Sequence record: PZ379547.1 | DNA from: a phage | DNA: 38,987 nucleotides | Reading direction: 5' to 3' (one strand) | Part shown: positions 184-33,803 of the stretch, piece by piece | Layout: every line of letters starts with the position of its first letter | Numbering within the stretch: position 1 is the first letter of the stretch | Notes under the pieces: generated by a model | What the model was told of the DNA's origin: nothing | Seen by the model: the letters and a program-made list of their open reading frames with translations, nothing else | Databases searched by the model: none | Made by a program: the position numbers and the translations under genes

Positions 184-206
184 ACTTAACTATCACTATA
201 GGGAAG
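184..206 (+). promoter_or_regulatory. Phage RNAP promoter (position equivalent to T7 phiOR, upstream of gene 19.5)
   Basis: cttaactatcactatagggaaga matches the repeated promoter consensus; +1 G at 201. Confidence 0.8.
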
Positions 207-386
207 ACCCCCGGTTACTTATAGTATTACTGTAGTGAATATACATATGCAGACTTTATGCAAGACCTTAGGAGGCAGACTCCGAGTTCTTACCTAAGGC
301 TTGCACCGATGGAAGGAGGGTGATATTAATCATAATCCCTCCAATACAGATAGTCACCGACCATAGATACAGGAGGTATGTAGCAT

Positions 387-545
387 ATGGCAAAGACCAA
401 AGCTGTACTTAAAGCTCTGGCGACCAATCGAGCTACATACAGGTTTCTTGCTGCTGTTCTACTTGCTGCTGGCGTTACTGCTGGAAGTCAGTGGGTCGGG
501 TGGGTCGAGACTCTCGTATGTTCTCTGGTCTCTCAGTGTAATTAA
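387..545 (+). CDS. Small hydrophobic protein, positional equivalent of T7 gene 19.5 (52 aa)
   Basis: ATG 387 with AGGAGG 10 nt upstream; ORF MAKTKAVLKALATNRATYRFLAAVLLAAGV...; stop TAA 543-545; sits after terminase and the phiOR-like promoter. Confidence 0.55.
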   Translation: MAKTKAVLKALATNRATYRFLAAVLLAAGVTAGSQWVGWVETLVCSLVSQCN

Positions 546-580
546 CGCAATCATGGTAACGATTCATGAGCGGAAGACCT

Positions 581-3793: not shown

Positions 3794-3816
3794 ACTTAAC
3801 TATCACTATAGGACTC
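3794..3816 (+). promoter_or_regulatory. Phage RNAP promoter directly upstream of the RNA polymerase gene
   Basis: cttaactatcactataggactca matches the promoter consensus; +1 G at 3811, 75 nt before the gene 1 ATG. Confidence 0.7.
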
Positions 3817-3885: not shown

Positions 3886-6567
3886 ATGAGCGTCATCTCT
3901 ATTGACAAGCACGACTTCTCTGATGTGTCGAACGCCATTGAGCCGTTTAACCTGCTGGCTGACCACTACGGGCAAGACCTTGCAGTCAAACAGCTTCAGC
4001 TTGAGCATGAGGCATATACAGAAGGCGAGCGACGTTTCATCAAGAACCTTGAGCGGCAGACTGAGCGCGGGGAACTGGCAGACAATCAGGTCGCCAAGCC
4101 TTTGATGCAGACTCTGGTCCCTAAGATTGCGCAAGCCGTCAGGGAGTGGCACGAAGGCCTAGACGGGAAGCTGTCAACCTCGCGTCCTAGCGTAGCGTTC
4201 ACCATGTTGAGCACTGAAGAGAAGGCCGTAAAGGACCGCTCTATGCGCATCTCCTGTGAGTCCGCTGCGGTTATCATACTGAAGGTCGTACTCTCCAAGC
4301 TGGTCAAGCCTGAAGGGATACCGATTACACCGATGGCCTCCGCGATAGGTCGCACACTTGAGGACGAAATCCGCTTCGGTCGCATCCGTGACAAAGAGAA
4401 GGAGCACTTCAAGAAGGCGATAGCTGATAACCTGAACAAGCGAGCTGGGGCATCCTACAAGAAAGCCTACATGCAAGCGGTCGAGGCGTCCATGCTGGAG
4501 CAAGGCCAACTGGAAGATGCATGGGGTACTTGGAGTCCTACAGAGGCTGTACACGTTGGCATCAAGATGCTCGAGATTGTCATCCAGTCAACACAACTGG
4601 TCGAGCTTAAGCGGTACGGTGCTGGTAATGCAGCGGCTGACGTAGAGATGGTCCACCTGTCAGACTTCTGGGTCAAGAAGATGGCACAACGAGGATTCAG
4701 CCTTGCGGGTATCGCTCCAGTCTACCAGCCTTGCGTCGTTCCACCTAAGCCGTGGACTGGTGTCGTAGGTGGTGGGTACTGGGCCAAAGGTCGCAGACCG
4801 TTACCATTGATTCGCTTAGGGTCTAAGTCTGCGGTAGCACGTTATGAAGACGTATACATGCCTGAAGTCTATGACGCTGTGAACATCATTCAGAATACAC
4901 CTTGGAAAGTTAACAAGAAGGTATTGGACGTGGTGAACATGGTCGAGAAGCTGAACAACACGCCTATTAATGACATCCCTCAGATGGAACCGCTGAAGCC
5001 TGAGGACTATGCTGGTGAAACCGAGGAGGAACTCAAGGCATGGAAGAAGGCTGCTGCTGGTATCTATCGCCGCGAGAAGGCCAGACAGTCACGCAGATTG
5101 TCCATGAGTTTCATCGTATCACAGGCCAACAAGTTCTCACAGTTTAAGGCCATCTGGTTCCCGTACAACATGGATTGGCGAGGTCGTGTCTACGCTGTCC
5201 CGATGTTCAACCCTCAGGGTAACGACATGCAGAAGGGGCTCCTGACTCTGGCAGTCGGCAAGCCTATCGGGGCGGATGGTTTCAAATGGCTTAAAGTCCA
5301 CGGTGCAAACTGTGCGGGTGTCGATAAAGTCACCTTCGATGAGCGCATCAAGTGGGTGGAAGACAACCACGAAAACATCATGGCTGCTGCTAAGGCACCG
5401 ATGGATAGTATTGAGTGGTGGGGCAAGTTAGACTCTCCGTTCTGTTTCCTCGCGTTCTGCTTCGAGTATGCTGGCGTAATGCACCACGGCCTGTCTTACT
5501 CCTGCTCGCTGCCGATAGCGTTCGATGGGTCCTGCTCTGGTATTCAGCACTTCAGTGCGATGCTTCGTGACCACATCGGTGGACATGCAGTAAACCTGAC
5601 GCCATCCGGCATGGTACAAGACATCTACCGCATTGTGTCTGACCGCATTGAGGAGGAGCTTAAAGTCCTTCTGATTAACGGTACTGACAACGAGATGGTC
5701 ACTCACGAGGATAAGAAAACTGGTGAGATTACCGAACGTATCAAGCTGGGGACACGAGAGCTGGCCCGTCAGTGGCTGACATACGGTATGTCACGCAAGG
5801 TCACTAAGCGTTCAGTCATGACTCTGGCATACGGGTCGAAAGAGTACGGATTCGCAGACCAAGTTTACGAGGACATCGTGATGCCAGCGATTGACTCAGG
5901 GTCTGGCGCTATGTTCACTGAACCAAGCCAAGCGTCTCGCTTCATGGCAAAGATGATTTGGGAAGCTGTGAGTGTGACAGTAGTTGCTGCGGTTGACGCG
6001 ATGAAGTGGCTTCAAGGTGCTGCCAAGCTGCTGGCTGCTGAGGTGAAGGACAAGAAGACTGGGGAAATCCTGAAGCCTTGCCTTCCGGTACACTGGGTCA
6101 CACCTGATGGGTTCCCGGTCTGGCAGGAATACCGCAAGAAGGATAGCACTCGTCTGAACCTGATGTTCTTAGGGTCCTTCAACCTTCAACCTACGGTCAA
6201 CAAAGGTACGAAGAAAGAGCTGGACAAGCACAAGCAGGAGTCAGGCATTAGCCCTAACTTCGTCCACTCACAAGATGGTAGCCACCTGCGGAAGACTGTA
6301 GTCCACACTCACCGCAAGTATGGCGTGATGTCATTCGCAGTGATTCACGATAGCTTCGGGACCATCCCTGCTGACGCTGAGTATCTGTTCCGTGGTGTCC
6401 GTGAGACGATGGTCGAGACATACCGCGATAACGATGTGCTGCTTGACTTCTACGAGCAGTTTGAATACCAGCTTCATGAAAGCCAGCGCGACAAGTTGCC
6501 TGAGCTTCCGAAGAAAGGTAAACTGAATATCGAAGACATCTTGTCTTCAGACTTTGCATTCGCTTAA
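3886..6567 (+). CDS. gp1: Single-subunit DNA-directed RNA polymerase (T7 gene 1 homolog), 893 aa
   Basis: DGSCSGIQHFSAMLRD, RSVMTLAYGSKEYGF, VIHDSFGTIPADA and C-terminal ...SDFAFA match recalled T7 RNAP motifs. Confidence 0.97.
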   Translation: MSVISIDKHDFSDVSNAIEPFNLLADHYGQDLAVKQLQLEHEAYTEGERRFIKNLERQTERGELADNQVAKPLMQTLVPKIAQAVREWHEGLDGKLSTSRPSVAFTMLSTEEKAVKDRSMRISCESAAVIILKVVLSKLVKPEGIPITPMASAIGRTLEDEIRFGRIRDKEKEHFKKAIADNLNKRAGASYKKAYMQAVEASMLEQGQLEDAWGTWSPTEAVHVGIKMLEIVIQSTQLVELKRYGAGNAAADVEMVHLSDFWVKKMAQRGFSLAGIAPVYQPCVVPPKPWTGVVGGGYWAKGRRPLPLIRLGSKSAVARYEDVYMPEVYDAVNIIQNTPWKVNKKVLDVVNMVEKLNNTPINDIPQMEPLKPEDYAGETEEELKAWKKAAAGIYRREKARQSRRLSMSFIVSQANKFSQFKAIWFPYNMDWRGRVYAVPMFNPQGNDMQKGLLTLAVGKPIGADGFKWLKVHGANCAGVDKVTFDERIKWVEDNHENIMAAAKAPMDSIEWWGKLDSPFCFLAFCFEYAGVMHHGLSYSCSLPIAFDGSCSGIQHFSAMLRDHIGGHAVNLTPSGMVQDIYRIVSDRIEEELKVLLINGTDNEMVTHEDKKTGEITERIKLGTRELARQWLTYGMSRKVTKRSVMTLAYGSKEYGFADQVYEDIVMPAIDSGSGAMFTEPSQASRFMAKMIWEAVSVTVVAAVDAMKWLQGAAKLLAAEVKDKKTGEILKPCLPVHWVTPDGFPVWQEYRKKDSTRLNLMFLGSFNLQPTVNKGTKKELDKHKQESGISPNFVHSQDGSHLRKTVVHTHRKYGVMSFAVIHDSFGTIPADAEYLFRGVRETMVETYRDNDVLLDFYEQFEYQLHESQRDKLPELPKKGKLNIEDILSSDFAFA

Positions 6568-7113: not shown

Positions 7114-7136
7114 CCTAAACTATCACTATAGGATTA
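7114..7136 (+). promoter_or_regulatory. Phage RNAP promoter (T7 phi1.1-like position)
   Basis: cctaaactatcactataggatta; +1 G at 7131. Confidence 0.85.
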
Positions 7137-7141
7137 GACTC

Positions 7142-7168
7142 AAGGTCATGACTCAAAGTCGTGGCCTT
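7142..7168 (+). promoter_or_regulatory. Predicted RNase III processing hairpin (T7 R1.1-like)
   Basis: AAGGUCAUGAC-ucaaa-GUCGUGGCCUU, 11-bp stem with G-U wobbles; preceded by the conserved agactcaagg motif. Confidence 0.6.
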
Positions 7169-7206
7169 CATGATTAACCCTAACTCATTCAATCAGGAGC
7201 TACACC

Positions 7207-7386
7207 ATGTATCAGAACACTATCAACTTCGAGCGAATCCGTGAACGTCAGCAGACTGAAGATTATATTCCGAAGGGACGCAAGCTGAACAAGACCAAGC
7301 GTGGTGGAGGTGTCAAGGGTGCTTTCCGTAACGCTGAAGGCAAAGACTCTATGGTCAACCAAGAGAAATACTTCGTAGGAGCGTAA
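7207..7386 (+). CDS. gp1.1: Gene 1.1-like small basic protein (59 aa)
   Basis: Below the track cut-off; ATG 7207 with AGGAG upstream; contains KGRKLNKTKRGGG as in recalled T7 gp1.1 (KGRKLNKTKR); stop TAA 7384-7386. Confidence 0.6.
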   Translation: MYQNTINFERIRERQQTEDYIPKGRKLNKTKRGGGVKGAFRNAEGKDSMVNQEKYFVGA

Positions 7387-7654: not shown

Positions 7655-8701
7655 ATGACAACTATCAAAACCAACCCGCATCGCGCTGTAGATTACTCTG
7701 AGTCAGGCGTTAAGAAAGCGCTTGAAGCTGCTGGGTCGCTGGAAGCCGAAGTGAAGTATGACGGTGTGCGGTTGAATATTCCGGTCTTCCCTACTGGTGA
7801 GACTCAATGGTTGAGCCGTGAGTCTAAACCTCTTCCAGCCTTGGAGTGGATGAACTCTGAGTTAGGTAATGCGTGGACCCAAGCTGACTGGCGATGGTTC
7901 CTGCGTCAAGCTGGCTACGAAGGCGTGGGCTTGATGATTGATGGCGAGGTAATGGTCAAAGGCGTGGACTTCAATACCTCCTCAGGTCTCATCCGAACGA
8001 AGTGGCTCAAGCCTAACAACGAGGAGTTCGCTGAATACTATTCGCCGGCGACTGGTGGAAAGAAGCTCCCGTTCTGGGGATCCCGGTCACGACTTCGGGT
8101 TGTGGTCTACGGTGTCATCGACATGACAACCATTGCTGACCCGAAAGCCGAAGGTCCTATCCATAGCGTCACACGCCTGAAGGCCGAAGCTATCGTCCCT
8201 CTCCTCCAGAAATACTTCCCGGAAATCGACTGGGTTCTGTCTGAGTCACACACGGTCTATGACCTTGAGTCGCTCAACTCCCTGTACGAACAGAAGCGTC
8301 TGGAAGGACACGAGGGTCTGGTAGTCAAGGACCCACTGGGTAAATATAAGCGTGGCAAGAAGTCAGGCATGTGGAAGATGAAGCCTGAGGAGACCATCGA
8401 CGGGACCGTGTGTGGTCTCGTGTGGGGGACTCAGGGTAAGGCTAACGAGGGCAAGGTCATCGGCTTCGAGGTTCTGCTTGAGGATGGCATGGTGGTTAAC
8501 GCCTGTGGTCTGACTGAAGAACAGAAGGCTGAGTTTACGGAAGCCTGTAACACTGATACATATATTCTCGGTGGAATCAATCCATACGAAGGCTGGCAAT
8601 GTGAAGTGCTATTCATGGAGCGGTTCCCTGATGGCTCTCTTCGTCACCCTAGCTTCAAGTGCTGGCGTGGAACGGAAGACAATCCAACCGTTAAGAGCTA
8701 A
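7655..8701 (+). CDS. gp1.3: ATP-dependent DNA ligase (T7 gene 1.3 homolog), 348 aa
   Basis: MTTIKTNP..., adenylation motif KYDGVR, MIDGEVMVKGVDFNTSSGLIRTKW, EGHEGLVVKDP, DGSLRHPSF match recalled T7 ligase; start moved from track 7559 to ATG 7655 (GGAG 10 nt upstream). Confidence 0.95.
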   Translation: MTTIKTNPHRAVDYSESGVKKALEAAGSLEAEVKYDGVRLNIPVFPTGETQWLSRESKPLPALEWMNSELGNAWTQADWRWFLRQAGYEGVGLMIDGEVMVKGVDFNTSSGLIRTKWLKPNNEEFAEYYSPATGGKKLPFWGSRSRLRVVVYGVIDMTTIADPKAEGPIHSVTRLKAEAIVPLLQKYFPEIDWVLSESHTVYDLESLNSLYEQKRLEGHEGLVVKDPLGKYKRGKKSGMWKMKPEETIDGTVCGLVWGTQGKANEGKVIGFEVLLEDGMVVNACGLTEEQKAEFTEACNTDTYILGGINPYEGWQCEVLFMERFPDGSLRHPSFKCWRGTEDNPTVKS

Positions 8702-8711
8702 CTAAATGTCA

Positions 8712-8744
8712 ACCCAGTGGTCTTCGGACTGCTGGGTTTCTTTG
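8712..8744 (+). terminator. Intrinsic terminator after ligase (T7 TE-like early terminator)
   Basis: ACCCAGUGGUC-UUCG-GACUGCUGGGU (11-bp stem, UUCG loop) followed by UUUCUUUG. Confidence 0.75.
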
Positions 8745-8765: not shown

Positions 8766-8788
8766 CCTAAGCTATCACTATAGGACAA
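8766..8788 (+). promoter_or_regulatory. Phage RNAP promoter, variant (G at -12)
   Basis: cctaagctatcactataggacaa; +1 G at 8783. Confidence 0.65.
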
Positions 8789-8812: not shown

Positions 8813-9073
8813 ATGTCTAATAACTTAATGTTCAACCGTTATTCCAATACCTTCCACCTGTCCAACAACCCGTTCGCTTGCATTAAGCGCAACGAGAAGC
8901 TGGGCTACTTCGGGAAGGCCGTGAAGTTATCACCTACAGTCTTCGCTCTGATTACTCCGGGTAAAGCTGAAGAGGCTCGCCAGAAGCGTGAGACCAACGT
9001 ACCTGTGGTCTACACTAAGTGGCCTCGCGTTCGTCTGTTTATTGAGTTCGTGAAGGAGGTGATCAATGGTTAA
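8813..9073 (+). CDS. Hypothetical protein (86 aa; T7 gene 1.4-1.6 region)
   Basis: ORF with SD taaggagact; no recognisable motif. Confidence 0.55.
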   Translation: MSNNLMFNRYSNTFHLSNNPFACIKRNEKLGYFGKAVKLSPTVFALITPGKAEEARQKRETNVPVVYTKWPRVRLFIEFVKEVING

Positions 9074-9591: not shown

Positions 9592-9746
9592 CTGACGTAG
9601 AGAAGAAATACATCGTGGAGCTTGAGGGTCTCGTTCAGTCCTTCGAGGTTCCGGTGTACGCAAAGTCTCTTGAAGAGGCTACCATGAAGTCCCAAGAGTA
9701 TGAGGACGCTGGGTTTATGGTCGGACGGATTCGTCCTGAGACCTAA
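9588..9746 (+). CDS. gp2: Host RNA polymerase inhibitor Gp2 (52 aa)
   Basis: Below the track cut-off; [14 protein letters not shown]...[10 protein letters not shown] matches recalled T7 Gp2 (SFEVPIYAETLDEA...AGFEVTRVRP); AAGGAG SD. Confidence 0.8.
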
Positions 9747-9764
9747 ACTATCACTGTAGGACAG
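9742..9764 (+). promoter_or_regulatory. Phage RNAP promoter, variant (G at -3), upstream of SSB gene
   Basis: cctaaactatcactgtaggacag; overlaps gene 2 stop. Confidence 0.65.
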
Positions 9765-9804: not shown

Positions 9805-10497
9805 ATGGCTAAAGAGCAATTGAAGACTTTCACCACTCCGGTAGCTGGTATCGTTGAGCCTTACGCATGGCTGAACAAAGCAGACACCAAGTTTAACGAG
9901 CGTGGTGAGCATAAGGTTAACCTGACGTTCGACCTGAGCGACCAGAAGGTCCGTAAGATGATTGATGTCTTACAGAAGATTCACGACGATGCGTATGCGA
10001 AAGCACTCGCAGACCACGAGAAGAACCCACCTCAGGTTCAGCGTGGCAAGAAGCCTATTGAACCACGTGAAGGCGACATGCCGTGGATTGAGAATGGTGA
10101 CGGTACTGTTACCCTTAAGTTTAAATGCTTTGCGTCTTACCTGAAAGACGGCAAGTCCGAGCCTATCGTATTACGGTTCTACGACACCGATGCTAAACTC
10201 ATCCGTGACGTCCCGAATATCTGCGCTGGGTCTAAGATGAAGGTCAAGTTTAAAGTCCTGCCGTTCAAGTGGAACGCTGCGACTGGTGCAAGCGTTAAGC
10301 TCCAGCTTGAGTCCTGCCTTCTGGTAGAACTGAAGGAGTGGAAAGGCGATGGTGGTGATGGTGGCTGGGGTGATGATGAAGACCTTGGTACTGGCTACAA
10401 AGCGCCAACCGATGGTGACTTCGGTGACGATGACTTCGGTGACGATGGTTCCGAAGGTGGTGACGACTCCAACTCTGGTGGCGATTACGACTTCTAA
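9805..10497 (+). CDS. gp2.5: Single-stranded DNA-binding protein (T7 gene 2.5 homolog), 230 aa
   Basis: EPYAWLNK, NPPQVQRGKKPIEPREGDMPW, GASVKLQLESCLLVEL and acidic Gly/Asp tail ending in F match recalled T7 gp2.5. Confidence 0.95.
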   Translation: MAKEQLKTFTTPVAGIVEPYAWLNKADTKFNERGEHKVNLTFDLSDQKVRKMIDVLQKIHDDAYAKALADHEKNPPQVQRGKKPIEPREGDMPWIENGDGTVTLKFKCFASYLKDGKSEPIVLRFYDTDAKLIRDVPNICAGSKMKVKFKVLPFKWNAATGASVKLQLESCLLVELKEWKGDGGDGGWGDDEDLGTGYKAPTDGDFGDDDFGDDGSEGGDDSNSGGDYDF

Positions 10498-12076: not shown

Positions 12077-12292
12077 ATGATTAAACTTATCGAATTTCTT
12101 GGTCGTCTGGTGGTGCGTGGTTATCGTCGTGCTGCGGTACTGGAACGAAAGGTAGAAAAGAAGACTGCGGACGGTGCGGCTGATGCTGCTGCTCTGGCTG
12201 ACAAGCTGACCATCGCGTCACTGGAAGCTGGCATGAAGGCTCGTCAGGCTGATACCAAAGCTGACCAGTTGGCTCAGTTCTTCAAAGCCTAA
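12077..12292 (+). CDS. Hypothetical protein (71 aa), Ala/Lys-rich
   Basis: ORF with SD (taagggagaac); no recognisable motif. Confidence 0.5.
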   Translation: MIKLIEFLGRLVVRGYRRAAVLERKVEKKTADGAADAAALADKLTIASLEAGMKARQADTKADQLAQFFKA

Positions 12293-12310
12293 ACTATCAC
12301 CTTAGGGATG
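12288..12310 (+). promoter_or_regulatory. Phage RNAP promoter, variant (CTTA instead of TATA), upstream of primase-helicase
   Basis: cctaaactatcaccttagggatg; weaker match to consensus. Confidence 0.5.
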
Positions 12311-12357: not shown

Positions 12358-14061
<1,704 letters not shown>

Positions 14062-14112: not shown

Positions 14113-14277
14113 GTGTTTAAGAAACTTAAAGCTCGCTACCATCGGTTCATGTACAAATGGTGGAGTGATGAAGCAACCTGCCTGTCCAACATTCTTGGAG
14201 ACCAAAGGTTCGACTCTAAGGCATGGAAGAGAGCTAACCGGAAGTTTATGTATCACTTCTTGCGTACAGACTTCTAG
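14113..14277 (+). CDS. Hypothetical small protein (54 aa from GTG; T7 gene 4.3-4.7 region)
   Basis: Track ORF 14077..14277; GTG 14113 has GGAGG 9 nt upstream; start uncertain. Confidence 0.35.
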   Translation: MFKKLKARYHRFMYKWWSDEATCLSNILGDQRFDSKAWKRANRKFMYHFLRTDF

Positions 14278-14287
14278 GTCTAGACTC

Positions 14288-14312
14288 AAGGTCATTCACA
14301 TCGAGTGGCCTT
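14288..14312 (+). promoter_or_regulatory. Predicted RNase III processing hairpin (T7 R4.7-like position)
   Basis: AAGGUCAU-ucacaucga-GUGGCCUU with G-U wobbles; preceded by agactcaagg motif. Confidence 0.55.
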
Positions 14313-17997: not shown

Positions 17998-18020
17998 ACT
18001 AAACTATCACTATAGGGACT
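17998..18020 (+). promoter_or_regulatory. Phage RNAP promoter (T7 phi6.5-like position)
   Basis: actaaactatcactatagggact; +1 G at 18015. Confidence 0.85.
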
Positions 18021-19272: not shown

Positions 19273-20841
19273 ATGGCTGAACGTGAAGGGTTCGCTGCTG
19301 AAGGAGCCAAAGCGGTCTATGACCGACTGAAGAACGGTAGACAGCCATATGAGACACGCGCTCAGAACTGTGCTGCTGTCACTATCCCGTCACTGTTTCC
19401 TAAGGAGTCCGACAACTCGTCTACTGAGTACACAACTCCGTGGCAAGCTGTAGGTGCTCGCTGTTTGAACAACTTGGCTGCAAAGCTGATGTTGGCATTA
19501 TTCCCTCAGTCACCGTGGATGCGACTGACAGTCTCCGAATATGAGGCCAAGACCTTGAGTCAGGACTCAGAGGCAGCTGCTCGTGTTGACGAAGGGCTGG
19601 CTATGGTCGAGCGTGTGTTGATGGCCTACATGGAGACCAACAGTTTCCGTGTGCCATTGTTCGAAGCTCTGAAGCAGCTTATCGTCTCCGGTAACTGTCT
19701 GCTCTACATTCCAGAGCCTGAACAGGGAACCTACAGTCCTATGCGAATGTACCGCTTAGTGTCATACGTTGTTCAACGTGATGCGTTCGGTAACATCTTG
19801 CAGATTGTGACTCTCGACAAGGTAGCGTTTAGTGCTCTACCGGAGGACGTGAAGTCTCAACTCAACGCAGATGACTATGAGCCTGACACCGAGCTGGAAG
19901 TGTATACGCACATCTACCGTCAGGACGACGAGTATCTACGCTACGAGGAAGTGGAAGGCATTGAGGTAGCAGGGACCGATGGTTCTTACCCACTGACTGC
20001 CTGTCCATACATCCCGGTACGAATGGTTCGACTGGACGGTGAAGACTACGGTCGTTCTTACTGCGAGGAGTATCTGGGAGACCTTAACTCGCTGGAGACG
20101 ATTACAGAAGCTATCACCAAAATGGCTAAGGTAGCCTCCAAGGTGGTGGGCCTCGTTAACCCGAACGGTATCACGCAACCTCGTCGTCTGAACAAGGCGG
20201 CTACAGGTGAGTTCGTGGCTGGTCGCGTTGAGGACATCAACTTCCTGCAACTGACGAAAGGTCAGGACTTTACGATTGCCAAGTCGGTGGCTGACGCTAT
20301 CGAGCAACGTTTAGGCTGGGCCTTCCTTCTTAATAGTGCTGTTCAGCGTAATGCAGAGCGTGTCACTGCTGAAGAGATTCGTTATGTTGCTGGCGAACTG
20401 GAGGCGACCTTAGGTGGCGTGTACTCAGTACAGTCACAAGAGCTTCAGTTACCTATCGTCCGTGTGCTGATGAACCAACTTCAGTCTGCTGGCATGATTC
20501 CTGACCTTCCGAAAGAAGCAGTAGAGCCTACTGTCTCCACTGGTCTGGAAGCGTTAGGTCGTGGTCAGGACTTGGAGAAGCTGACTCAGGCGGTTAACAT
20601 GATGACTGGTCTTCAGCCGCTATCTCAGGACCCGGACATCAACTTGCCGACCCTTAAGCTACGACTCCTGAACGCTCTGGGTATCGACACCGCTGGCCTA
20701 CTCCTGACGCAAGACGAGAAGATTCAGCGCATGGCTGAGCAGTCGTCTCAACAGGCAGTTGTCCAAGGTGCTGGCGCTGCTGGTGCTAACATGGGCGCTG
20801 CTGTAGGTCAGGGAGCTGGTGAGGACATGGCTCAAGCCTAA
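19273..20841 (+). CDS. gp8: Portal (head-tail connector) protein (T7 gene 8 homolog), 522 aa
   Basis: YETRAQNCA..TIPSLFPK, TPWQAVGAR, RMYRLVSYVVQRDAFGN, RMVRLDGEDYGRSY, TAEEIRYVAGELE match recalled T7 gp8. Confidence 0.95.
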   Translation: MAEREGFAAEGAKAVYDRLKNGRQPYETRAQNCAAVTIPSLFPKESDNSSTEYTTPWQAVGARCLNNLAAKLMLALFPQSPWMRLTVSEYEAKTLSQDSEAAARVDEGLAMVERVLMAYMETNSFRVPLFEALKQLIVSGNCLLYIPEPEQGTYSPMRMYRLVSYVVQRDAFGNILQIVTLDKVAFSALPEDVKSQLNADDYEPDTELEVYTHIYRQDDEYLRYEEVEGIEVAGTDGSYPLTACPYIPVRMVRLDGEDYGRSYCEEYLGDLNSLETITEAITKMAKVASKVVGLVNPNGITQPRRLNKAATGEFVAGRVEDINFLQLTKGQDFTIAKSVADAIEQRLGWAFLLNSAVQRNAERVTAEEIRYVAGELEATLGGVYSVQSQELQLPIVRVLMNQLQSAGMIPDLPKEAVEPTVSTGLEALGRGQDLEKLTQAVNMMTGLQPLSQDPDINLPTLKLRLLNALGIDTAGLLLTQDEKIQRMAEQSSQQAVVQGAGAAGANMGAAVGQGAGEDMAQA

Positions 20842-20859
20842 ACTATCACTATAGGAACA
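20837..20859 (+). promoter_or_regulatory. Phage RNAP promoter (T7 phi9-like position)
   Basis: cctaaactatcactataggaaca; +1 G at 20854; overlaps portal stop. Confidence 0.8.
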
Positions 20860-21824: not shown

Positions 21825-21847
21825 ACTAAACTATCACTATAGGGAGA
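21825..21847 (+). promoter_or_regulatory. Phage RNAP promoter upstream of capsid gene (T7 phi10-like), with 5' leader hairpin
   Basis: actaaactatcactatagggaga; +1 G at 21842; leader GGGAGACC ... GGUUUCCC can pair, like the T7 phi10 leader. Confidence 0.9.
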
Positions 21848-23268: not shown

Positions 23269-23304
23269 CCCCTTGGGTGCCTTCGGGTGCTTGAGGGGTT
23301 TTTT
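23269..23304 (+). terminator. Strong intrinsic terminator after capsid gene (T7 Tphi-like)
   Basis: CCCCUUGGGUGCC-UUCG-GGUGCUUGAGGGG (13-bp stem with G-U pairs, UUCG tetraloop) followed by UUUUUU. Confidence 0.9.
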
Positions 23305-23319
23305 GCTTAAGGAGGGCCT

Positions 23320-24122: not shown

Positions 24123-26480
24123 ATGCCACTTATCACACAAAGCATAAAAAATCTTAAAGGTGGAATTAGCCAGCAGCCTGACATACTGAGGTTCTCAGAC
24201 CAAGGCGAGGCGCAGGTTAACTGCTGGTCATCAGAGAGTGATGGCCTCCAGAAGCGTCCACCTACAGTCTTCAAGCGACGTCTTAACATCGACGTTGGGA
24301 GCAACCCTAAGTTCCACCTGATTAACCGTGATGAGCAGGAGCAGTATTACATCGTGTTCAACGGGTCCAACATTCAGGTAGTTGACTTGAGCGGTAATCA
24401 ATACTCAGTTTCCGGTGAGGTAGACTACGTTAAGTCGTCCAACCCGCGAGATGACATCCGTGTCGTTACTGTTGCAGACTATACGTTCGTCGTTAACCGT
24501 AAGGTTGTCGTTAAAGGTGGAAGCGATAAGTCACACTCTGGTTATAATCGTAAAGCACGCGCTTTAATTAACCTGCGCGGTGGACAGTATGGTCGCACCC
24601 TTAAGGTAGGAATCAACGGTGGAGTTAAGGTCTCGCATAAGCTGCCAGCAGGTAATGATGCCGAGAATGACCCACCTAAGGTGGACGCTCAAGCCATTGG
24701 TGCAGCTCTGAGAGACCTTCTTGTTGCTGCCTATCCTACCTTCACGTTCGACCTTGGGTCTGGCTTCCTGCTAATCACAGCTCCTTCAGGGACCGACATT
24801 AACTCAGTGGAGACTGAGGATGGATACGCTAACCAGCTAATCAGCCCAGTCCTCGACACGGTGCAAACAATCTCTAAGTTGCCTCTTGCGGCTCCAAATG
24901 GGTACATCATTAAGATTCAAGGTGAGACCAACAGTAGCGCCGATGAATATTACGTGATGTACGACTCCAACACTAAGACGTGGAAGGAGACAGTAGAGCC
25001 GGGAGTGGTCACTGGGTTCGATAACACCACAATGCCACATGCTCTGGTGAGACAATCTGACGGCTCCTTTGAGTTCAAGACTCTGGACTGGTCCAAGCGT
25101 GGTGCTGGTAATGATGACACAAACCCTATGCCTAGCTTCGTGGATGCCACGATTAACGATGTGTTCTTCTACAGGAACAGGCTGGGGTTCTTGTCAGGTG
25201 AGAACGTAATCATGAGCCGTTCAGCCAGCTACTTTGCGTTCTTCCCTAAGAGTGTGGCTACACTGAGTGATGATGATCCTATTGACGTAGCTGTAAGTCA
25301 TCCTAGAATCTCAATCCTTAAGTATGCCGTTCCGTTTAGCGAGCAGCTACTACTTTGGTCGGATGAGGTGCAGTTCGTGATGACAAGCTCTGGGGTCCTT
25401 ACCTCGAAGTCTATCCAGCTTGATGTAGGCTCAGAGTTTGCTTTAGGAGATAATGCCAGACCGTTCGCTGTAGGACGCTCAGTCTTCTTCTCAGCTCCTC
25501 GTGGGTCATTCACCAGCATTAAGCGATACTTCGCTGTAGCTGATGTGTCTGATGTGAAGGATGCTGATGATACAACCGGTCACGTATTGTCCTACATCCC
25601 TAACGGGGTGTTTGACATTCAGGGGACAGGGACTGAGAACTACATCTGCGTCAACTCTACAGGTGCATACAACCGAATCTACCTCTACAAGTTCTTGTTT
25701 AAGGACGGCGTACAGCTTCAAGCCTCTTGGTCGCACTGGGAGTTCCCTAAAGCTGATAAGATTCTGGCGTCTGCGTCGATTGGCTCTACCATGTTCATTG
25801 TTCGTCAGCACCAAGGCGGCGTGGACCTTGAGCACCTTAAGTTCATCAAGGAGGCAACTGACTTTCCGTTAGAGCCATATAGACTCCACGTTGACTCCAA
25901 GGTGTCTATGGTCATCCCAATTGGCTCGTTTAATGCTGACACATATAAGACTACGGTTGACATTGGTGCTGCTTATGGTGGTAATGCTCCGTCTCCCGGT
26001 CGGTACTATCTGATTGACAGTCAGGGTGCTTATTTGGACCTTGGTGAATTGACCGACATCTCAACTGTGGCTGTACTCAATGGTGATTGGTCAGGACGTA
26101 CAGTGTTCATCGGACGGTCTTATCTGATGTCCTACAAGTTCTCACGGTTCCTGATTAAGATTGAAGACGAGAGTGGCACTCAGTCTGAAGACACTGGTCG
26201 TCTACAGCTTCGTCGTGCTTGGGTAAACTACAAGGACACTGGCGCTCTTAGACTCATTGTCAGAAACGGTGAGCGGGAGTTCGTGAACACCTTTAATGGG
26301 TACACCCTTGGTCAGCAAACCATAGGTACTACCAACATTGGGGATGGTCAGTATCGATTCGCTATGAATGGCAACGCATTAACCACGAGTCTAACCTTAG
26401 AGTCCGACTATCCTACCCCGGTATCCATCGTTGGGTGTGGCTGGGAGGCGTCATACGCTAAGAAAGCTCGTTCCGTCTAA
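24123..26480 (+). CDS. gp12: Tail tubular protein B (T7 gene 12 homolog), 785 aa
   Basis: SQSIKNLKGGISQQPDILR, GLQKRPP, VTVADYTFVVNR, NRLGFLSGEN, DDDPIDVAVS, RLQLRRAWVNY, GCGWE match recalled T7 gp12. Confidence 0.95.
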   Translation: MPLITQSIKNLKGGISQQPDILRFSDQGEAQVNCWSSESDGLQKRPPTVFKRRLNIDVGSNPKFHLINRDEQEQYYIVFNGSNIQVVDLSGNQYSVSGEVDYVKSSNPRDDIRVVTVADYTFVVNRKVVVKGGSDKSHSGYNRKARALINLRGGQYGRTLKVGINGGVKVSHKLPAGNDAENDPPKVDAQAIGAALRDLLVAAYPTFTFDLGSGFLLITAPSGTDINSVETEDGYANQLISPVLDTVQTISKLPLAAPNGYIIKIQGETNSSADEYYVMYDSNTKTWKETVEPGVVTGFDNTTMPHALVRQSDGSFEFKTLDWSKRGAGNDDTNPMPSFVDATINDVFFYRNRLGFLSGENVIMSRSASYFAFFPKSVATLSDDDPIDVAVSHPRISILKYAVPFSEQLLLWSDEVQFVMTSSGVLTSKSIQLDVGSEFALGDNARPFAVGRSVFFSAPRGSFTSIKRYFAVADVSDVKDADDTTGHVLSYIPNGVFDIQGTGTENYICVNSTGAYNRIYLYKFLFKDGVQLQASWSHWEFPKADKILASASIGSTMFIVRQHQGGVDLEHLKFIKEATDFPLEPYRLHVDSKVSMVIPIGSFNADTYKTTVDIGAAYGGNAPSPGRYYLIDSQGAYLDLGELTDISTVAVLNGDWSGRTVFIGRSYLMSYKFSRFLIKIEDESGTQSEDTGRLQLRRAWVNYKDTGALRLIVRNGEREFVNTFNGYTLGQQTIGTTNIGDGQYRFAMNGNALTTSLTLESDYPTPVSIVGCGWEASYAKKARSV

Positions 26481-26487: not shown

Positions 26488-26537
26488 AAGGGCCTATAGA
26501 TTTACCTTAACTATCACTATAGGGACTATAGGCCCTT
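26488..26537 (+). repeat. Perfect 12-bp inverted repeat (aagggcctatag / ctataggccctt) bracketing the gene 13 promoter
   Basis: Arms at 26488-26499 and 26526-26537, read directly. Confidence 0.8.
26505..26527 (+). promoter_or_regulatory. Phage RNAP promoter (T7 phi13-like position)
   Basis: ccttaactatcactatagggact; +1 G at 26522. Confidence 0.85.
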
Positions 26538-26556: not shown

Positions 26557-27027
26557 ATGTATATTCGCAAGGCTACGGAACAGGATGTCCACTACTTTCT
26601 GTGGCATCTTTCAGCAGATGATGTTAATGAGTGCAAAGCAAACTACGGGTCAACCGTTGGTCTCTCTGAAAGACTGCTTAAGCACCTATCTCCGTCATCT
26701 GTGGTTTTAACGAACGGTGTAGGCGAAGTGTTTGCCTATGGTGGAAACCAAGGGGATAACGTATGGTTCTTGACTTCCGGTCTTGTCCATAAGCTGAGAC
26801 CTAAAGAGAAGCGGGAGTTCATAAAGCGTATCTCTGAGTACAGGGACTTAATGTTAGACCAATACGGGACCATCTGGAACTACGTGTGGTCAGGCAATAA
26901 GTCTCACATTAAATTCTTGAAGTTGCTTGGGGCTAAATTCCATGATGATTGGACTATAAGCCCAGTAACTGGTGAGCGTTTTCAACTATTCACTATCTCT
27001 AAGGAGGACGTATGTGCGAGCCAGTAA
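26557..27027 (+). CDS. Internal virion protein (T7 gene 13 positional equivalent), 156 aa
   Basis: ORF between gp12 and gp14 with SD (taaggag); assigned by synteny. Confidence 0.55.
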   Translation: MYIRKATEQDVHYFLWHLSADDVNECKANYGSTVGLSERLLKHLSPSSVVLTNGVGEVFAYGGNQGDNVWFLTSGLVHKLRPKEKREFIKRISEYRDLMLDQYGTIWNYVWSGNKSHIKFLKLLGAKFHDDWTISPVTGERFQLFTISKEDVCASQ

Positions 27028-29893: not shown

Positions 29894-29897
29894 CATA

Positions 29898-32800
29898 ATG
29901 GCGACTCGTGGTATTCGCAATAACAATCCGGGTAACATCCGGGTAAGTAAGGACCAATGGGAAGGAATGACTGGAGATGATGGCGCATTCGTCACCTTCG
30001 ATAGTCCAGAGTCTGGCGTCCGAGCTTTAGGTAAAAACCTGCTGTCCTACGGTCGCCAAGGCTATGACTCCATCGAGAAGATTATCAACCGATGGGCACC
30101 TCCTAACGAGAACGACACTAAGGCTTATATCGACTCAGTGGTGGCTGCAACTGGTATTCCAGCTACCCAGAGTCTCGACCTATCGAACCCGGACACCCTG
30201 TCTGCTCTGGCGCAAGCTATCAGCTTCCATGAGACAGGCTCCCGGTACGACCCTGAAGTCTATCAGAAGGGAGTCGCACGAGCACTCAATGGCATTAGCC
30301 CAAAGACTCCACCAGTAAGCGCTAACGTATTTGACGCACTCACGGAAGGACTCAAGGCTAAACCTAAAGTAGCTCTTGGCGAGAACCTTCCGAACGCTGC
30401 TGGTCTGAACATTGAGGGTCAAGCATCTGAAGCTCCCAACGAATCGTTCGGTGAAATGTTCTATAAGGCTACCGGCGATACCATGCAGGAACGAGAGGAC
30501 CGCTCTACGTGGTTCGGCTTCGGGGTGGCTACAAAAGCTGAAGTGAAGAACTCTATGATCGGCGTGGCTATCCGCGCTGGTCAGACAGAGGACTCACTTG
30601 ATGTAATTGGCGATGTGTTCAACCCGACCCGTTGGAACAACCATAAGTGGACTCGTGAGGAGCTGGACCAGATTCGTAACGCTGGGGTCCTGCCTCAGTA
30701 TTACGGGGTCATTACTGGTGGCTCCCCTCAGAACCTGACCGAGCTTATTAACTTGGCGCTTGAGAACCAGAAGTTGGACCAAGAGAAGGCCAAGGCTGGG
30801 ACTGGTGCTCAGGTAGCTGCTGGTGTGATTGGCGCTGGTGTAGACCCTCTGACATACGTTCCTATCGCTGGACAGGTTGGTAAAGGCGCTAAGCTGGTCA
30901 ATAAGATGTTCACCGTGGCTGCTCAATCTGGAGCACTGGCTGGTGTGTCAGAGATGGCCCGTACCTCAGTGGCTGGTGGTGATGCTCATGTGGCTGAAGC
31001 TATCCTTGGTGGTGCTCTCTTCGGTGGTGGTATGACTGCTATCGCTGATGGGTTAGGCAGAGCCTTAGGTCGCAACACTAATGAGTTTGCTGGCCCAGCT
31101 ACACGTCTGGAAGCTCGTGAGACCGCTCGTAACGTTGATGGTCAGGACCTGTCTCGTCTCCCTATTCAGGAAGGTGAGCAGACCTTTAGTCATCAAGGAG
31201 TTAAGTTCGCTGACGTTCCGAATGAGCCGGGTAGTGTACGACTTGAAGATGGTTCAATCCTGATTGGTGAGAACCCTCTGAACCCTAAGACACGTAAGGT
31301 CTTTGACGAAGTGATTGAGCCTGAACGTGCCGCTGCTGGTGTGAACCTTGGTGGGCTAACTGAGATTGGCCTGAAGCTGCTTCGGTCCGAGAACCCTGAG
31401 ATTCGTGGAGTCGCTTCCGACTTAGTGCGTTCACCGACTGGTATGCAGTCAGGGGCCTCAGGTAAAATCGGGACCACTGCGTCAGACGTATTCGAGAGAC
31501 TTCGTGCTGTGGACCATCGGTTCTACAATGACATCGACGATGCGGTTACTGAGGCACTAAAGGACCCGTACTTCCAGACAGCATTCTGGCGAGACTCTGG
31601 CGCATTCCGTCAAGACATCTATCAGCGCGTGTCTATGGCTATCGAAGATGGTAGCGGAAACCTGAAGGCTGAATTGACTCCGGGAGAACTGAAAGTCTAT
31701 GACCTGCTGAAGAACCAGTTTGACGCCAAGCGTGAGATGATGGAGAACCCGGCGATGTTTGGTCGCCCAGACGCTCAGTCTATCTTTCCGGGTAGCCGCT
31801 TCAAGGGAACATACGTCCCGCATGTGTATAGCAACCAGATGAAGGAGCTGTACATCAAGGAGCTTGGGAGTCCAGAGGCACTACAGGAGGCCATCAAGAA
31901 GTCATGGTTGACCAGCTATGCGTCTCGACCTGAAGTCAAGAAACGTGTGGACGAGGCACTCTTAGAGGCTGACCCTACGTTGACTCCAGAAGGACTTGCG
32001 GCTGCGGTCGATAAGTACGCCAACGATAAGGCTTATGGTATCTCTCACACCGAGCAGTTCGAGCGTTCATCCGTAATGGAAGAGAACATCAATGGTCTGG
32101 TGGGTCTGGAGAACAACAGCTTCCTTGAGGCTCGTAACCTGTTCGATAGCGACATGTCAATCGTCCTACCTAACGGTCAGACCTTCAGTGTCAACAACCT
32201 GCGTGAGTGGGACATGGACAAGATTGTCCCGGCCTACAACCGTCGAGTTAATGGCGATATTGCTATCATGGCTGGTACAGGCAAGACCACGAAGGACATG
32301 AAGGACTTGGTTGAGACCCTGATGAACAAGGCTGGGGATGACGGTAAGTTGAAAGGTGAAGTATCTACCTTACGTGACACTTTGAAGATTCTAACTGGTC
32401 GTGCTCGACGTGATGGTGCTGATGATGCGGCCTTCGCTACCGTGATGCGCACAATGACAGACCTATCGTTCTTCGCTAAGAATGCCTACATGGGTGTTCA
32501 GAACTTAACGGAGATTGGTGGTATGCTGGCTCGTGGTAACGTTCGTGCAATGCTTCATGGAGTCCCAATTTTCCGTGACCTAGCCTTCCGTAACAAGAAG
32601 GTTGGGGCCTCAGAGATTAAGGACCTGCACAATGTTATCTTCGGTAAGGAACTGGATGACTCAATCCGTCCGTCTAAACAGGATGTCATTGACCGTCTGA
32701 GATCTTACAGTGACCTCGGTCGTGGTACAGCTACAGCTCTGGGGACTGCCAAGTATTACACTGGCGAACTTGCAGTACGCTATCCGTTCACTAAAGTCCT

Positions 32801-33785
32801 CAACGGTACGACCAACTACCTGTTAGATGCTGGACGTCAGGGCTTCCTGTCTGACATCGTGGAGCATAGCCTGACTGGTAGTAAGCGTAAGTTCGATGAC
32901 CGCTGGCTGAAGACCGCTGGTATCTCTGACGAGCAGTGGAAGGGCATTAAGTCCCTAATCCGTGAGTCAGTGACTCGTGGTCCAGACGGGAAGTATACCA
33001 TCAAGGATAAGAAGGCGTTCAGTCAGGACCCAAGGGCTATGGACCTGTGGCGTATGGGTGACACCATCGCTGACGAGACATTGCTTCGTCCACACAAGCT
33101 GAGCAACATGGACGCCAAGGCTTATGGTCCTCTGGCTAAGACTGTCCTTCAGTTTAAGAACTTCGTCATCAAGTCCATCAATGGGCGTACCATGCGAACC
33201 TTCTATAACGCCACGAAGAACAACCGAGCGATGGATGCTGCTCTGTCCACCGTGATGTCTATGGGTCTTGCTGGTATCTACTACATGGCTCAGGCACACA
33301 TAAAGGCTTACGCTATGCAGGACGGTCGTGACCGAGAGTATCTGAAGCAAGCCCTTAACCCAACAATGATTGGCTATGCGGCGCTGTCCCGTAGCTCCCA
33401 CTTAGGTGGTCCTCTTGGGGTCGCCCACATTCTGGGTGGAATCGCTGGGTATGAGGACACTAAGATGCTCCGCTCGTCAATCCTTCCGCGCTCACCTACC
33501 GAGAAGACGGAGAAGCCAATCGCCTTTGGTGCTGCTTCCAGTGGTCCGGTAATGAATGTGGTCGGCAACTTCCTTGAGCAGGTCCCGGCTTTCGGCTATG
33601 CTGCTAACGTTGGTGCTACGGCTTACAACTTGGCGGGATACCTCAAGGCTGATACCCGTGTCAACGAGCGAGACTACATGACCGGGATGTATAACACGTT
33701 CCGTGAACTTGTACCGAATGACCCGATTACCCAGAAGTTGCTGCTTGGAACGTTTGAGGAGCAGGGCATCCACATCAAGGACTAA
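29898..33785 (+). CDS. gp16: Internal virion (core/ejection) protein D (T7 gene 16 homolog), 1295 aa; N-terminal about 130 aa differ from the T7 transglycosylase module
   Basis: From about residue 200 strongly T7 gp16-like (RWNNHKWTREELDQIR, VITGGSPQNLTELINLA, RLEARETARN, RSPTGMQSGASGK, NPAMFGRP, GTYVPHVY, EARNLFDSD, NGTTNYLLDA, DPRAMDLWR); start moved to ATG 29898 (AAGGAG 7 nt upstream). Confidence 0.93.
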   Translation: MATRGIRNNNPGNIRVSKDQWEGMTGDDGAFVTFDSPESGVRALGKNLLSYGRQGYDSIEKIINRWAPPNENDTKAYIDSVVAATGIPATQSLDLSNPDTLSALAQAISFHETGSRYDPEVYQKGVARALNGISPKTPPVSANVFDALTEGLKAKPKVALGENLPNAAGLNIEGQASEAPNESFGEMFYKATGDTMQEREDRSTWFGFGVATKAEVKNSMIGVAIRAGQTEDSLDVIGDVFNPTRWNNHKWTREELDQIRNAGVLPQYYGVITGGSPQNLTELINLALENQKLDQEKAKAGTGAQVAAGVIGAGVDPLTYVPIAGQVGKGAKLVNKMFTVAAQSGALAGVSEMARTSVAGGDAHVAEAILGGALFGGGMTAIADGLGRALGRNTNEFAGPATRLEARETARNVDGQDLSRLPIQEGEQTFSHQGVKFADVPNEPGSVRLEDGSILIGENPLNPKTRKVFDEVIEPERAAAGVNLGGLTEIGLKLLRSENPEIRGVASDLVRSPTGMQSGASGKIGTTASDVFERLRAVDHRFYNDIDDAVTEALKDPYFQTAFWRDSGAFRQDIYQRVSMAIEDGSGNLKAELTPGELKVYDLLKNQFDAKREMMENPAMFGRPDAQSIFPGSRFKGTYVPHVYSNQMKELYIKELGSPEALQEAIKKSWLTSYASRPEVKKRVDEALLEADPTLTPEGLAAAVDKYANDKAYGISHTEQFERSSVMEENINGLVGLENNSFLEARNLFDSDMSIVLPNGQTFSVNNLREWDMDKIVPAYNRRVNGDIAIMAGTGKTTKDMKDLVETLMNKAGDDGKLKGEVSTLRDTLKILTGRARRDGADDAAFATVMRTMTDLSFFAKNAYMGVQNLTEIGGMLARGNVRAMLHGVPIFRDLAFRNKKVGASEIKDLHNVIFGKELDDSIRPSKQDVIDRLRSYSDLGRGTATALGTAKYYTGELAVRYPFTKVLNGTTNYLLDAGRQGFLSDIVEHSLTGSKRKFDDRWLKTAGISDEQWKGIKSLIRESVTRGPDGKYTIKDKKAFSQDPRAMDLWRMGDTIADETLLRPHKLSNMDAKAYGPLAKTVLQFKNFVIKSINGRTMRTFYNATKNNRAMDAALSTVMSMGLAGIYYMAQAHIKAYAMQDGRDREYLKQALNPTMIGYAALSRSSHLGGPLGVAHILGGIAGYEDTKMLRSSILPRSPTEKTEKPIAFGAASSGPVMNVVGNFLEQVPAFGYAANVGATAYNLAGYLKADTRVNERDYMTGMYNTFRELVPNDPITQKLLLGTFEEQGIHIKD

Positions 33786-33803
33786 ACTATCACTACAGGA
33801 AAC
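33781..33803 (+). promoter_or_regulatory. Phage RNAP promoter, variant (C at -2), upstream of tail fibre gene (T7 phi17-like)
   Basis: actaaactatcactacaggaaac; overlaps gp16 stop. Confidence 0.6.

Follow-up and report, generated by a model that had tools for sequence, protein, structure and literature searches.

Genome organization and the repeated element

The analyzed DNA, referred to as the window, comprises 38,987 nucleotides of sequence record PZ379547.1 and represents the circularly assembled, permuted genome of a Kayfunavirus (K1F-like, T7 group; Studiervirinae). Its first 25 kb showed 94 to 96% nucleotide identity over 89 to 94% to many Kayfunavirus records. The window was collinear with K1F apart from a few modules, and the C-terminus of its tail fibre is unrelated to the K1F endosialidase. 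Gene 1 encodes a T7-like RNA polymerase (RNAP) that aligned with T7 RNAP structures over its full length (E = 0), with 98% identity to K1F RNAP and 94% to Ro45lw RNAP; at the nucleotide level the gene was 99.6% identical to that of phages LS3, ECG4, and LS2. A 23-bp element recurs 11 times, always on the plus strand and co-oriented with the genes, and 10 of the 11 copies lie 30 to 108 nt 5' of a gene start. The copies, given as the frame from −17 to +6, the corresponding sites of phage EcoDS1, and the features of the polymerase gene and of a terminator are as follows.

184..206, plus strand: phiOR equivalent, ACTTAACTATCACTATAGGGAAG; +1 G at 201, after terminase gene 19; counterparts K1F 38852-38874, Dev2 38200-38222, annotated EcoDS1 phiOR 38500-38522
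3794..3816, plus strand: promoter before gene 1 (RNAP); +1 at 3811, 75 nt 5' of the gene; EcoDS1 'phi' 2244-2266
3886..6567, plus strand: gene 1, single-subunit DNA-dependent RNA polymerase, 893 aa
6145..6198, plus strand: codons of the specificity β-hairpin, STRLNLMFLGSFNLQPTV; window aa 754-771, equivalent to T7 Q744-I761
6199..6228, plus strand: codons of NKGTKKELDK (T7 762-771, NTNKDSEIDA); outside the grafted hairpin segment
7114..7136, plus strand: phi1.1 equivalent; +1 at 7131; annotated EcoDS1 promoter 6034-6056
8766..8788, plus strand: phi1.6 equivalent with G at −12; +1 at 8783, before gene 1.6 (8813-9073); EcoDS1 phi1.6 7725-7747
9742..9764, plus strand: phi2.5 equivalent, CACTGTAGG variant; +1 at 9759, before gene 2.5 for the ssDNA-binding protein (9805-10497); EcoDS1 phi2.5 8719-8741
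12288..12310, plus strand: promoter before gene 4, CACCTTAGGG variant; +1 at 12305; primase/helicase gene 4 at 12361-14061; EcoDS1 promoter 11107-11129
17998..18020, plus strand: phi6.5 equivalent, first late (class III-type) promoter; +1 at 18015; EcoDS1 phi6.5 16991-17013
20837..20859, plus strand: phi9 equivalent; +1 at 20854, before scaffold gene 9; EcoDS1 phi9 19813-19835
21825..21847, plus strand: phi10 equivalent, ACTAAACTATCACTATAGGGAGA; +1 at 21842, before the major capsid gene (21950-22999); EcoDS1 promoter 20819-20841
23280..23307, plus strand: Tphi-like intrinsic terminator, CCTTCGGGTGCTTGAGGG then GTTTTTTGCT, between genes 10 and 11
26505..26527, plus strand: phi13 equivalent; +1 at 26522, before gene 13 (26557-27027); EcoDS1 phi13 25367-25389
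33781..33803, plus strand: phi17 equivalent, CACTACAGG variant; +1 at 33798; EcoDS1 phi17 33040-33062

The phi1.1 equivalent is followed 76 nt further 3' by a 59-aa open reading frame (ORF; 7207-7386), a 1.2-like ORF, and the ligase gene. The phi17 equivalent and the end of gene 16 overlap, and tail-fibre gene 17 (ATG at 33850) begins 52 nt further 3'. Because the copy at 184 comes after the terminase gene in the permuted window and precedes a 52-aa gene 19.5 analogue (387-545) by 186 nt, it was assigned as the phiOR equivalent.

Sequence, conservation, and layout of the promoter family

All copies conform to (A/C)CT(A/T)AACTATCACTATAGG(G/A)A. When three or fewer mismatches to TAAACTATCACTATAGGGA were allowed, there were exactly 11 matches, on the plus strand only (starts at 186, 3796, 7116, 8768, 9744, 12290, 18000, 20839, 21827, 26507, and 33783), compared to a chance expectation of 0.00 from 100 dinucleotide-preserving shuffles, confirming the 11 copies and coordinates of the sequence-only reading. 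Positions C−16, T−15, A−13, C−11, T−10, A−9, T−8, C−7, A−6, C−5, A−1, G+1, and G+2 were invariant in all copies, and the total information between −17 and +4 was about 36 bits without sample-size correction. The core CACTATAG was exact in eight copies, the other three being the single- or double-substitution variants CACTGTAG, CACCTTAG, or CACTACAG. The element contains the initiation core of the T7 group, TCACTATAG, with G at +1, and at −12 to −8 it carries the K1F-subfamily sequence ACTAT in 10 copies and GCTAT in one. The copies scored 30.6 to 37.2 bits with a position-weight matrix; a scan of the window with this matrix gave no 12th strong copy, the next best site (18027-18049) reaching 15.2 bits. 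Allowing up to three mismatches, no T7-consensus site was found in the window, and the T7 genome scanned with the window matrix had no site of 10 bits or more.

For every site there is an orthologue at the corresponding position in K1F, Dev2, and EcoDS1, and the phage promoters annotated in the EcoDS1 record (NC_011042) are exactly these 11, in the order before gene 1, phi1.1, 1.6, 2.5, 4, 6.5, 9, 10, 13, 17, and OR, together with TE and a Tphi-type terminator. EcoDS1 represents another Kayfunavirus isolate or species, and its flanks and gene content deviate from those of the window in minor ways. The sequence variants are kept across genomes site by site, namely, AAGCTATCAC at phi1.6, CACTGTAGG at phi2.5, and CACCTTAGG at phi4; in EcoDS1 the first two recur at phi1.6 and phi2.5 and the CACCTTAGGG variant at the promoter corresponding to that before gene 4. 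In K1F, 10 of the 11 sequences are identical to the window copies or 1 nt off, and phiOR is three positions off. The copy that precedes gene 1 in Ro45lw has the sequence CACTAAAGG. Identity to Dev2 was 95.7% in the promoter cores versus 74.0% in the 60-nt flanks.

The layout mirrors that of T7. The genes 3' of the promoters agree with the T7 map, the positions of phi1.1, 1.6, 2.5, 6.5, 9, 10, 13, 17, and OR are common to both phages, and so is the 23-bp architecture. In comparison to the 17 promoters of T7, the window has 11, lacking phiOL, 1.3, 4c, 4.3, and 4.7 and possessing an additional one just 5' of gene 1; no phage promoter immediately 5' of gene 1 is present in the T7, T3, or K11 annotations. 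At the sequence level, the phi10 equivalent is identical to T7 phi10 from −8 to +6 (TCACTATAGGGAGA), and 8 of the 9 positions between −17 and −9 differ. The common core between −7 and +1 proposed in the sequence-only reading therefore held and actually spans −8 to +6, while the difference placed at −12 to −8 had to be redrawn as −12 to −9 (ACTA versus CGAC) and extended to −17 to −14.

RNase III hairpins are also found among the dispersed intergenic repeats of T7-like genomes, and several adjoin the sites of the window, so the elements might alternatively represent an RNase III processing signal, a replication or recombination signal, or a selfish repeat. This explanation is barely credible, since the 23-bp element lacks the symmetry of a hairpin, shares its −8 to +6 initiation region with T7 promoters, and occupies T7 promoter positions, and the RNase III-like hairpins form a distinct family located downstream. 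Moreover, purified Ro45lw RNAP, 94% identical to the window enzyme, initiates in vitro at the +1 G from the minimal promoter ACTTAACTATCACTATAGGGA (Takatsuki et al. 2025, PMC12272871), a sequence identical to the first 21 nt of the copy at 184 (184-204). The EcoDS1 annotation and this in vitro activity both bear out the claim that the elements are promoters of the phage RNAP.

The RNA polymerase and its specificity hairpin

In the β-hairpin, the window RNAP departs from T7 by Q754→S, R756→N, and I761→V and retains R746, N748, and Q758, in line with the expectation that its specificity hairpin differs from that of T7. It is identical to the K1F hairpin, TRLNLMFLGSFNLQPTV, from the T7-745 to the T7-761 equivalent; the T7-744 equivalent is S in the window and T in K1F. 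The RNAP of Ro45lw, a phage of the same genus, has 56 amino-acid differences from the window enzyme, including M→L at the T7-750 equivalent, and both enzymes carry R/N/N/Q at T7 746/748/756/758. According to structure 1CEZ, the base-contacting residues of T7 are R746, N748, R756, and Q758 (PMC11880802), only one of which is changed in the window (R756N). N748 is kept although −11 and −10 differ from T7, and a one-residue/one-base reading thus falls short of a full explanation.

The sequence-only reading had singled out the residues just before the conserved HKQESGI, in peptide QPTVNKGTKKELDKHKQESGI (encoded at 6187-6249), as the part of the RNAP that corresponds to the promoter difference. The segment concerned, NKGTKKELDK, is strongly unlike T7 NTNKDSEIDA, is conserved in K1F and Ro45lw, and falls within the 'specificity loop' in its broad sense (739-770). 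It nevertheless corresponds to T7 762-771, outside the T7 Q744-I761 segment that alone was replaced in the K1F graft (Temme et al. 2012, PMC3458549). This graft, with 754S, 756N, and 761V, is enough to make the enzyme active on ACTAT and to let it discriminate against the promoters of T7 and T3, and none of the four base-contacting residues lies in 762-771 (PMC11880802). That NKGTKKELDK rather than the hairpin strands sets the difference from T7 is therefore very unlikely, and the assignment was abandoned in favor of the hairpin.

A further divergence was observed in the N-terminal AT-rich recognition loop, where T7 93-101 KAKRGKRPT is replaced by DGKLSTSRPSV followed by an 11-aa insertion.

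Orthogonality and the proposed transcription program

Synthetic biology and in vitro transcription make good use of orthogonal pairs of a single-subunit RNAP and its promoter, and a genuinely new specificity would therefore be of practical value. The earlier interpretation was right in kind, but the pair is not new: it is the K1F/Kayfunavirus pair, annotated in NC_011042, exploited as an orthogonal expression tool since 2012, and characterized biochemically with the native Ro45lw enzyme in 2025. With the window, one further isolate joins a well-sampled genus, whose more than 200 sequenced relatives carry essentially the same hairpin. The engineered T7(K1F) RNAP/PK1F pair was described by Temme et al. 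2012 (PMC3458549) and Segall-Shapiro et al. 2014 (PMC4299498), and T7 RNAP 754S/756N/761V is paired with ACTAT as its cognate sequence (PMC11880802, Table 2), exactly the pairing at −12 to −8 found in the window. The synthetic components differ from the native ones in that PK1F has the T7 sequence at −17 to −13, where the native sites read (A/C)CT(A/T)A, and T7(K1F) is built on the T7 scaffold, whereas the native enzyme has a different N-terminal loop.

On its own promoter, T7(K1F) gave 17-fold induction and was orthogonal to T7, T3, and 'N4' (PMC3458549). The predicted orthogonality thus stands toward T7 and T3 in the T7 scaffold (PMC3458549, PMC11880802), but its degree is only moderate, with a minimum cognate/non-cognate ratio of 8 in the graft set (PMC11880802). 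In the literature searched, no SP6 or K11 test of the pair and no cross-reactivity of the native enzyme on T7, T3, SP6, or K11 promoters were found. Substantial cross-use between the native RNAP and T7-type promoters, or between T7 RNAP and the window promoters, would make the pair not meaningfully orthogonal. The identity to T7 from −8 to +6, the ratio of 8 together with non-cognate pairs that 'still showed relatively high activity' (PMC11880802), and a variable background put down to cross-reactivity of T7 RNAP with the test promoters (PMC12272871) all point in that direction. Against it, each grafted RNAP was rated highly orthogonal by Temme et al. (PMC3458549), the 8 differing positions between −17 and −9 separate the promoters, and the diverged N-terminal loop should add discrimination; such cross-use was considered improbable.

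The 11 elements almost certainly make up the complete set of promoters read by the T7-like single-subunit RNAP (3886-6567) that this K1F-type phage itself encodes. In the proposed program, host RNAP would transcribe the early region including gene 1, and the phage enzyme would then bind each 23-bp element, with the β-hairpin (window aa 754-771) occupying the major groove over about −12 to −7, melt the TATA segment, and start at the G at +1. Initiation at this G by the cognate RNAP is predicted here and was seen by others on the near-identical parts of Ro45lw; likewise, the switch of specificity by a hairpin graft was demonstrated by others on near-identical parts in the T7 scaffold. R756N, with Q754S and I761V, would go with ACTAT replacing CGACT at −12 to −8, setting the specificity apart from T7 and T3. 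We infer that each site is active in this phage, with strengths and timing that would follow the example of T7. Deviant, presumably weaker sites (before genes 1, 1.1, 1.6, 2.5, and 4) would drive the DNA-metabolism genes, and mostly consensus sites would drive virion genes 6.5, 9, 10, 13, and 17 (phi17 with the CACTACAG variant), in addition to phiOR near the right end.

The invariant C−16 and T−15 of the window promoters, compared to A and A in T7, raise the possibility that the N-terminal loop of the native enzyme reads −17 to −13 as a second specificity determinant, untransferred by the graft. Separately, the RNAP might exert positive autoregulation via the conserved gene 1 promoter. Both suggestions are tentative and rather doubtful. 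Should the loop read −17 to −13 in a sequence-specific manner, the separation of the native pair from T7 would considerably exceed the 8-fold value of the graft, and the loop itself could be transferred as a second module; the gene 1 promoter, for its part, would mean autoregulation by a promoter placed unlike any in T7, T3, or K11.

The Tphi-like terminator (23280-23307) occupies the position of T7 Tphi and of the annotated EcoDS1 terminator 22122-22157 and would end or attenuate the phi9 and phi10 transcripts. As a side observation, the RNase III-like hairpins of the window make up a repeat family of their own 3' of the promoter sites, several of them adjoining a site.

Phage-RNAP promoters in a K1F-type genome

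The search for TAAACTATCACTATAGGGA with up to three mismatches gave exactly 11 matches, all on the plus strand, at positions 186, 3796, 7116, 8768, 9744, 12290, 18000, 20839, 21827, 26507, and 33783, compared to 0 matches in 100 dinucleotide-preserving shuffles. Across the 11 aligned copies, positions C−16, T−15, A−13, C−11, T−10, A−9, T−8, C−7, A−6, C−5, A−1, G+1, and G+2 were invariant, the information over −17 to +4 summed to approximately 36 bits, uncorrected for sample size, and the exact CACTATAG core was present in 8 copies. The eleven elements reached weight-matrix scores of 30.6 to 37.2 bits, followed by a runner-up at 15.2 bits, and the scan of both strands of the window revealed no extra or minus-strand copy above this value. 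The eleven-copy repeat described in the sequence-only reading, whose coordinates mark where the 23-bp frame (−17 to +6) begins, was confirmed by the motif search, the shuffles, and the weight matrix.

At the sequence level, the family was separated from that of T7. In the window, nothing came within three mismatches of the T7 consensus, and no site of at least 10 bits was found in the T7 genome with the window matrix. The promoters of gene 10 (phi10; ACTAAACTATCACTATAGGGAGA in the window) are identical in the two phages from −8 to +6, whereas between −17 and −9 they differ at 8 of 9 positions.

A one-to-one promoter set was found with the same weight matrix in phage K1F and in Cronobacter phage Dev2, the latter having one additional site before gene 5, where the weight-matrix scan detected no copy in the window. 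The RefSeq K1F record is without promoter features, and the record of the related phage EcoDS1 was used for annotated promoters. This GenBank record (NC_011042) annotates 11 phage promoters, and the motif search found the element at exactly these features:

EcoDS1 promoters (NC_011042): before gene 1, before 1.1, phi1.6, phi2.5, before gene 4, phi6.5, phi9, before gene 10, phi13, phi17, and phiOR

The deviations AAGCTATCAC (phi1.6), CACTGTAGG (phi2.5), and CACCTTAGG (before gene 4) recurred in EcoDS1 at the equivalent sites. Compared with Dev2, the window's 23-bp cores were 95.7% identical and its 60-nt flanks 74.0%, a pattern that would fit purifying selection acting on the element. The genes downstream of the promoters, as assigned by PHROG match, included those for ligase, 1.6, the 2.5 ssDNA-binding protein, primase/helicase, 6.5, scaffold, capsid, gene 13, and tail fibre. 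A Tphi-like terminator was located 3′ of gene 10 (23280-23307); the sigma-70 and terminator consensus scans, whose matches were not enriched over shuffles, were used solely to locate this hairpin.

Bases 1-127 recur exactly at 38861-38987, which is typical of assembler overlap on a circularised contig, and the K1F direct terminal repeat maps to a single copy at 785-960. The record is therefore a permuted, collapsed form of a linear genome of approximately 39.0 kb with its physical left end near 785. Because of this permutation and its flanks, just 3′ of the terminase gene 19 and 186 nt upstream of the 52-aa gene 19.5 analogue, the copy at 184 is the phiOR equivalent and does not open a large gene block.

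The RNA polymerase and its specificity hairpin

The 893-aa ORF at 3886-6567 aligned over its whole length with T7 RNA polymerase (RNAP) structures (E = 0) and shared 98% identity with K1F RNAP and 94% with the RNAP of Kayfunavirus Ro45lw. At the DNA level, the gene shared 99.6% identity with the RNAP genes of Escherichia phages LS3, ECG4, and LS2, and >95% with those of dozens of Kayfunavirus isolates.

The specificity β-hairpin (codons 6145-6198, equivalent to T7 Q744-I761) reads STRLNLMFLGSFNLQPTV versus QTRLNLMFLGQFRLQPTI in T7, with the changes Q754→S, R756→N, and I761→V, and with R746, N748, and Q758 kept. In the complex of T7 RNAP with its promoter, bases are contacted by R746, N748, R756, and Q758 (cited in PMC11880802). 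Specificity probably rests on a combination of residues rather than on single contacts, because N748 is unchanged although promoter positions −11 and −10 differ from T7. The segment that the sequence-only reading had singled out (QPTVNKGTKKELDKHKQESGI, encoded at 6187-6249) is real and differs from T7 just ahead of HKQESGI (NKGTKKELDK versus NTNKDSEIDA, T7 762-771), but these differing residues lie outside those shown to carry specificity, the functional graft being Q744-I761. At ≥90% identity, the hairpin region was present in 206 records of the phage collection; the best match to its 55 aa was 98.2%, and no record reached 100%. RNAP residue 754 (6145-6147), the equivalent of T7 Q744, is S in the window, whereas K1F and Ro45lw have T; the substitution is minor, specific to this isolate, and at the hairpin edge.

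A second, strongly divergent region was found at RNAP residues 92-120 (4159-4245), where DGKLSTSRPSV replaces KAKRGKRPT of T7 and precedes an insertion of 11 aa that T7 and T3 lack; K11 RNAP carries a still longer insertion at the equivalent N-terminal spot. We take T7 RNAP residues 93-101 to be the AT-rich recognition loop. The promoters of the window have (A/C)CT(A/T) at −17 to −14 versus TAAT in T7, and the divergence of the N-terminal loop parallels these differences.

T7-like RNAPs have been sorted into hairpin subfamilies, each with its own promoter binding-region consensus, and the K1F hairpin was put in place of T7 Q744-I761 with the T7 promoter positions −12 to −7 exchanged for the K1F consensus (Temme et al. 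2012, PMC3458549). The resulting T7(K1F) RNAP and its engineered promoter PK1F were active, with 17-fold induction, and were called orthogonal to the T7, T3, and ‘N4’-type pairs (PMC3458549). The K1F loop was re-used in split polymerases (Segall-Shapiro et al. 2014). The T7(K1F) variant has since been listed as 632S, 754S, 756N, and 761V with the cognate ACTAT, in a four-pair set with an orthogonality of 8, the minimum cognate/non-cognate ratio (PMC11880802 Table 2), and K1F names one of nine main clusters in the specificity network (PMC11880802). Native Ro45lw RNAP was purified, its minimal promoter defined as ACTTAACTATCACTATAGGGA (Takatsuki et al. 2025, PMC12272871), and +1 mapped to G by sequencing of transcript 5′ ends (PMC12272871); this minimal promoter is identical to window 184-204. 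Repeats of CTWAACTATCACTATAGG in another Kayfunavirus were described as promoters in a 2026 genome report.

The prediction of promoters with non-T7 specificity paired with a variant hairpin was correct in kind. The pair is not new, being the well-known K1F/Kayfunavirus pair, and its proposed orthogonality was both tested and exploited earlier, at least against T7 and T3 in a T7 scaffold.

Proposed transcription program and the promoter before gene 1

The sequence, arrangement, and orthology of the promoter/RNAP pair and the identity of its hairpin were observed directly, and others have shown initiation and the specificity switch on near-identical parts. The following course would be expected. 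The early region, with its RNase III-like hairpins, is presumably read by the host RNAP, which would thereby yield the phage RNAP. It would bind the 23-bp elements via the hairpin (−12 to −7) and the N-terminal loop (−17 to −13), melt the TATA segment, and initiate at the +1 G. Deviant sites lie 5′ of the early and middle genes 1, 1.1, 1.6, 2.5, and 4, and the virion genes are preceded by consensus or near-consensus sites, phi17 being a CACTACAG variant; T7 shows a similar split between class II and class III. How strong each of these sites is in this phage, and when it acts, is inferred.

The phage promoter at 3794-3816 is located 75 nt 5′ of the RNAP gene (gene 1 ATG at 3886), whereas the T7, T3, and K11 annotations near that spot have only host promoters and RNase III sites. 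K1F and EcoDS1 share this site (annotated ‘phi’ in EcoDS1), and Dev2 and Ro45lw have it in a variant form, CACTAAAGG. This promoter may provide positive feedback on RNAP synthesis.

Genome modules and neighbouring repeats

The first 25 kb matched many Kayfunavirus genomes with 94-96% identity over approximately 90% of its length, and the window was collinear with K1F (NC_007456) save for a few modules. The C-terminal two-thirds of the tail fibre (34484-36084; gene 17 at 33850-36030) lacks nucleotide similarity to the K1F endosialidase gene, and gene 17 matched a different full-length tail-fibre PHROG, 27367. The receptor-binding module has thus been swapped, and the phage is therefore probably not K1-capsule specific. 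The DNA polymerase gene (14305-16512) is uninterrupted, in contrast to that of K1F, in which an insertion of approximately 600 bp (K1F 14935-15535; corresponding site at ~16355-16357) contains an HNH endonuclease ORF.

A degenerate promoter-like element, CCTAAGATATGACTATAAGATAG, was found at 18027-18049 (15.2 bits), 29 bp downstream of phi6.5, with the offset kept in K1F and Dev2 and no unusual RNA fold around it (z = −0.07). It may represent a tandem promoter that has decayed, or a regulatory site.

No Rfam family reached its gathering threshold anywhere in the window. The eleven elements were rejected as RNase III sites, the RNase III-like hairpins forming a distinct neighbouring repeat family. 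Its copies share GACTCAAGGTCAT…GGCCTT (7134-7180, 14277-14325, and 36642-36688), fold as stable hairpins with an internal loop (z = −2.3 to −3.8), and sit where T7 has its RNase III sites R1.1, R4.7, and R18.5; a decayed promoter-like stretch, ATCTCTTAAGTG, precedes the family copy at 36630. The early region carries a 30-nt repeat, GGCCTGACTGATAGTCACTAAC, in three copies (1527-1556, 1844-1873, and 2753-2782), each just 5′ of an early ORF and each forming the 3′ half of a bulged hairpin (z = −2.0 to −3.7). RNase III probably processes the early transcript at these copies.
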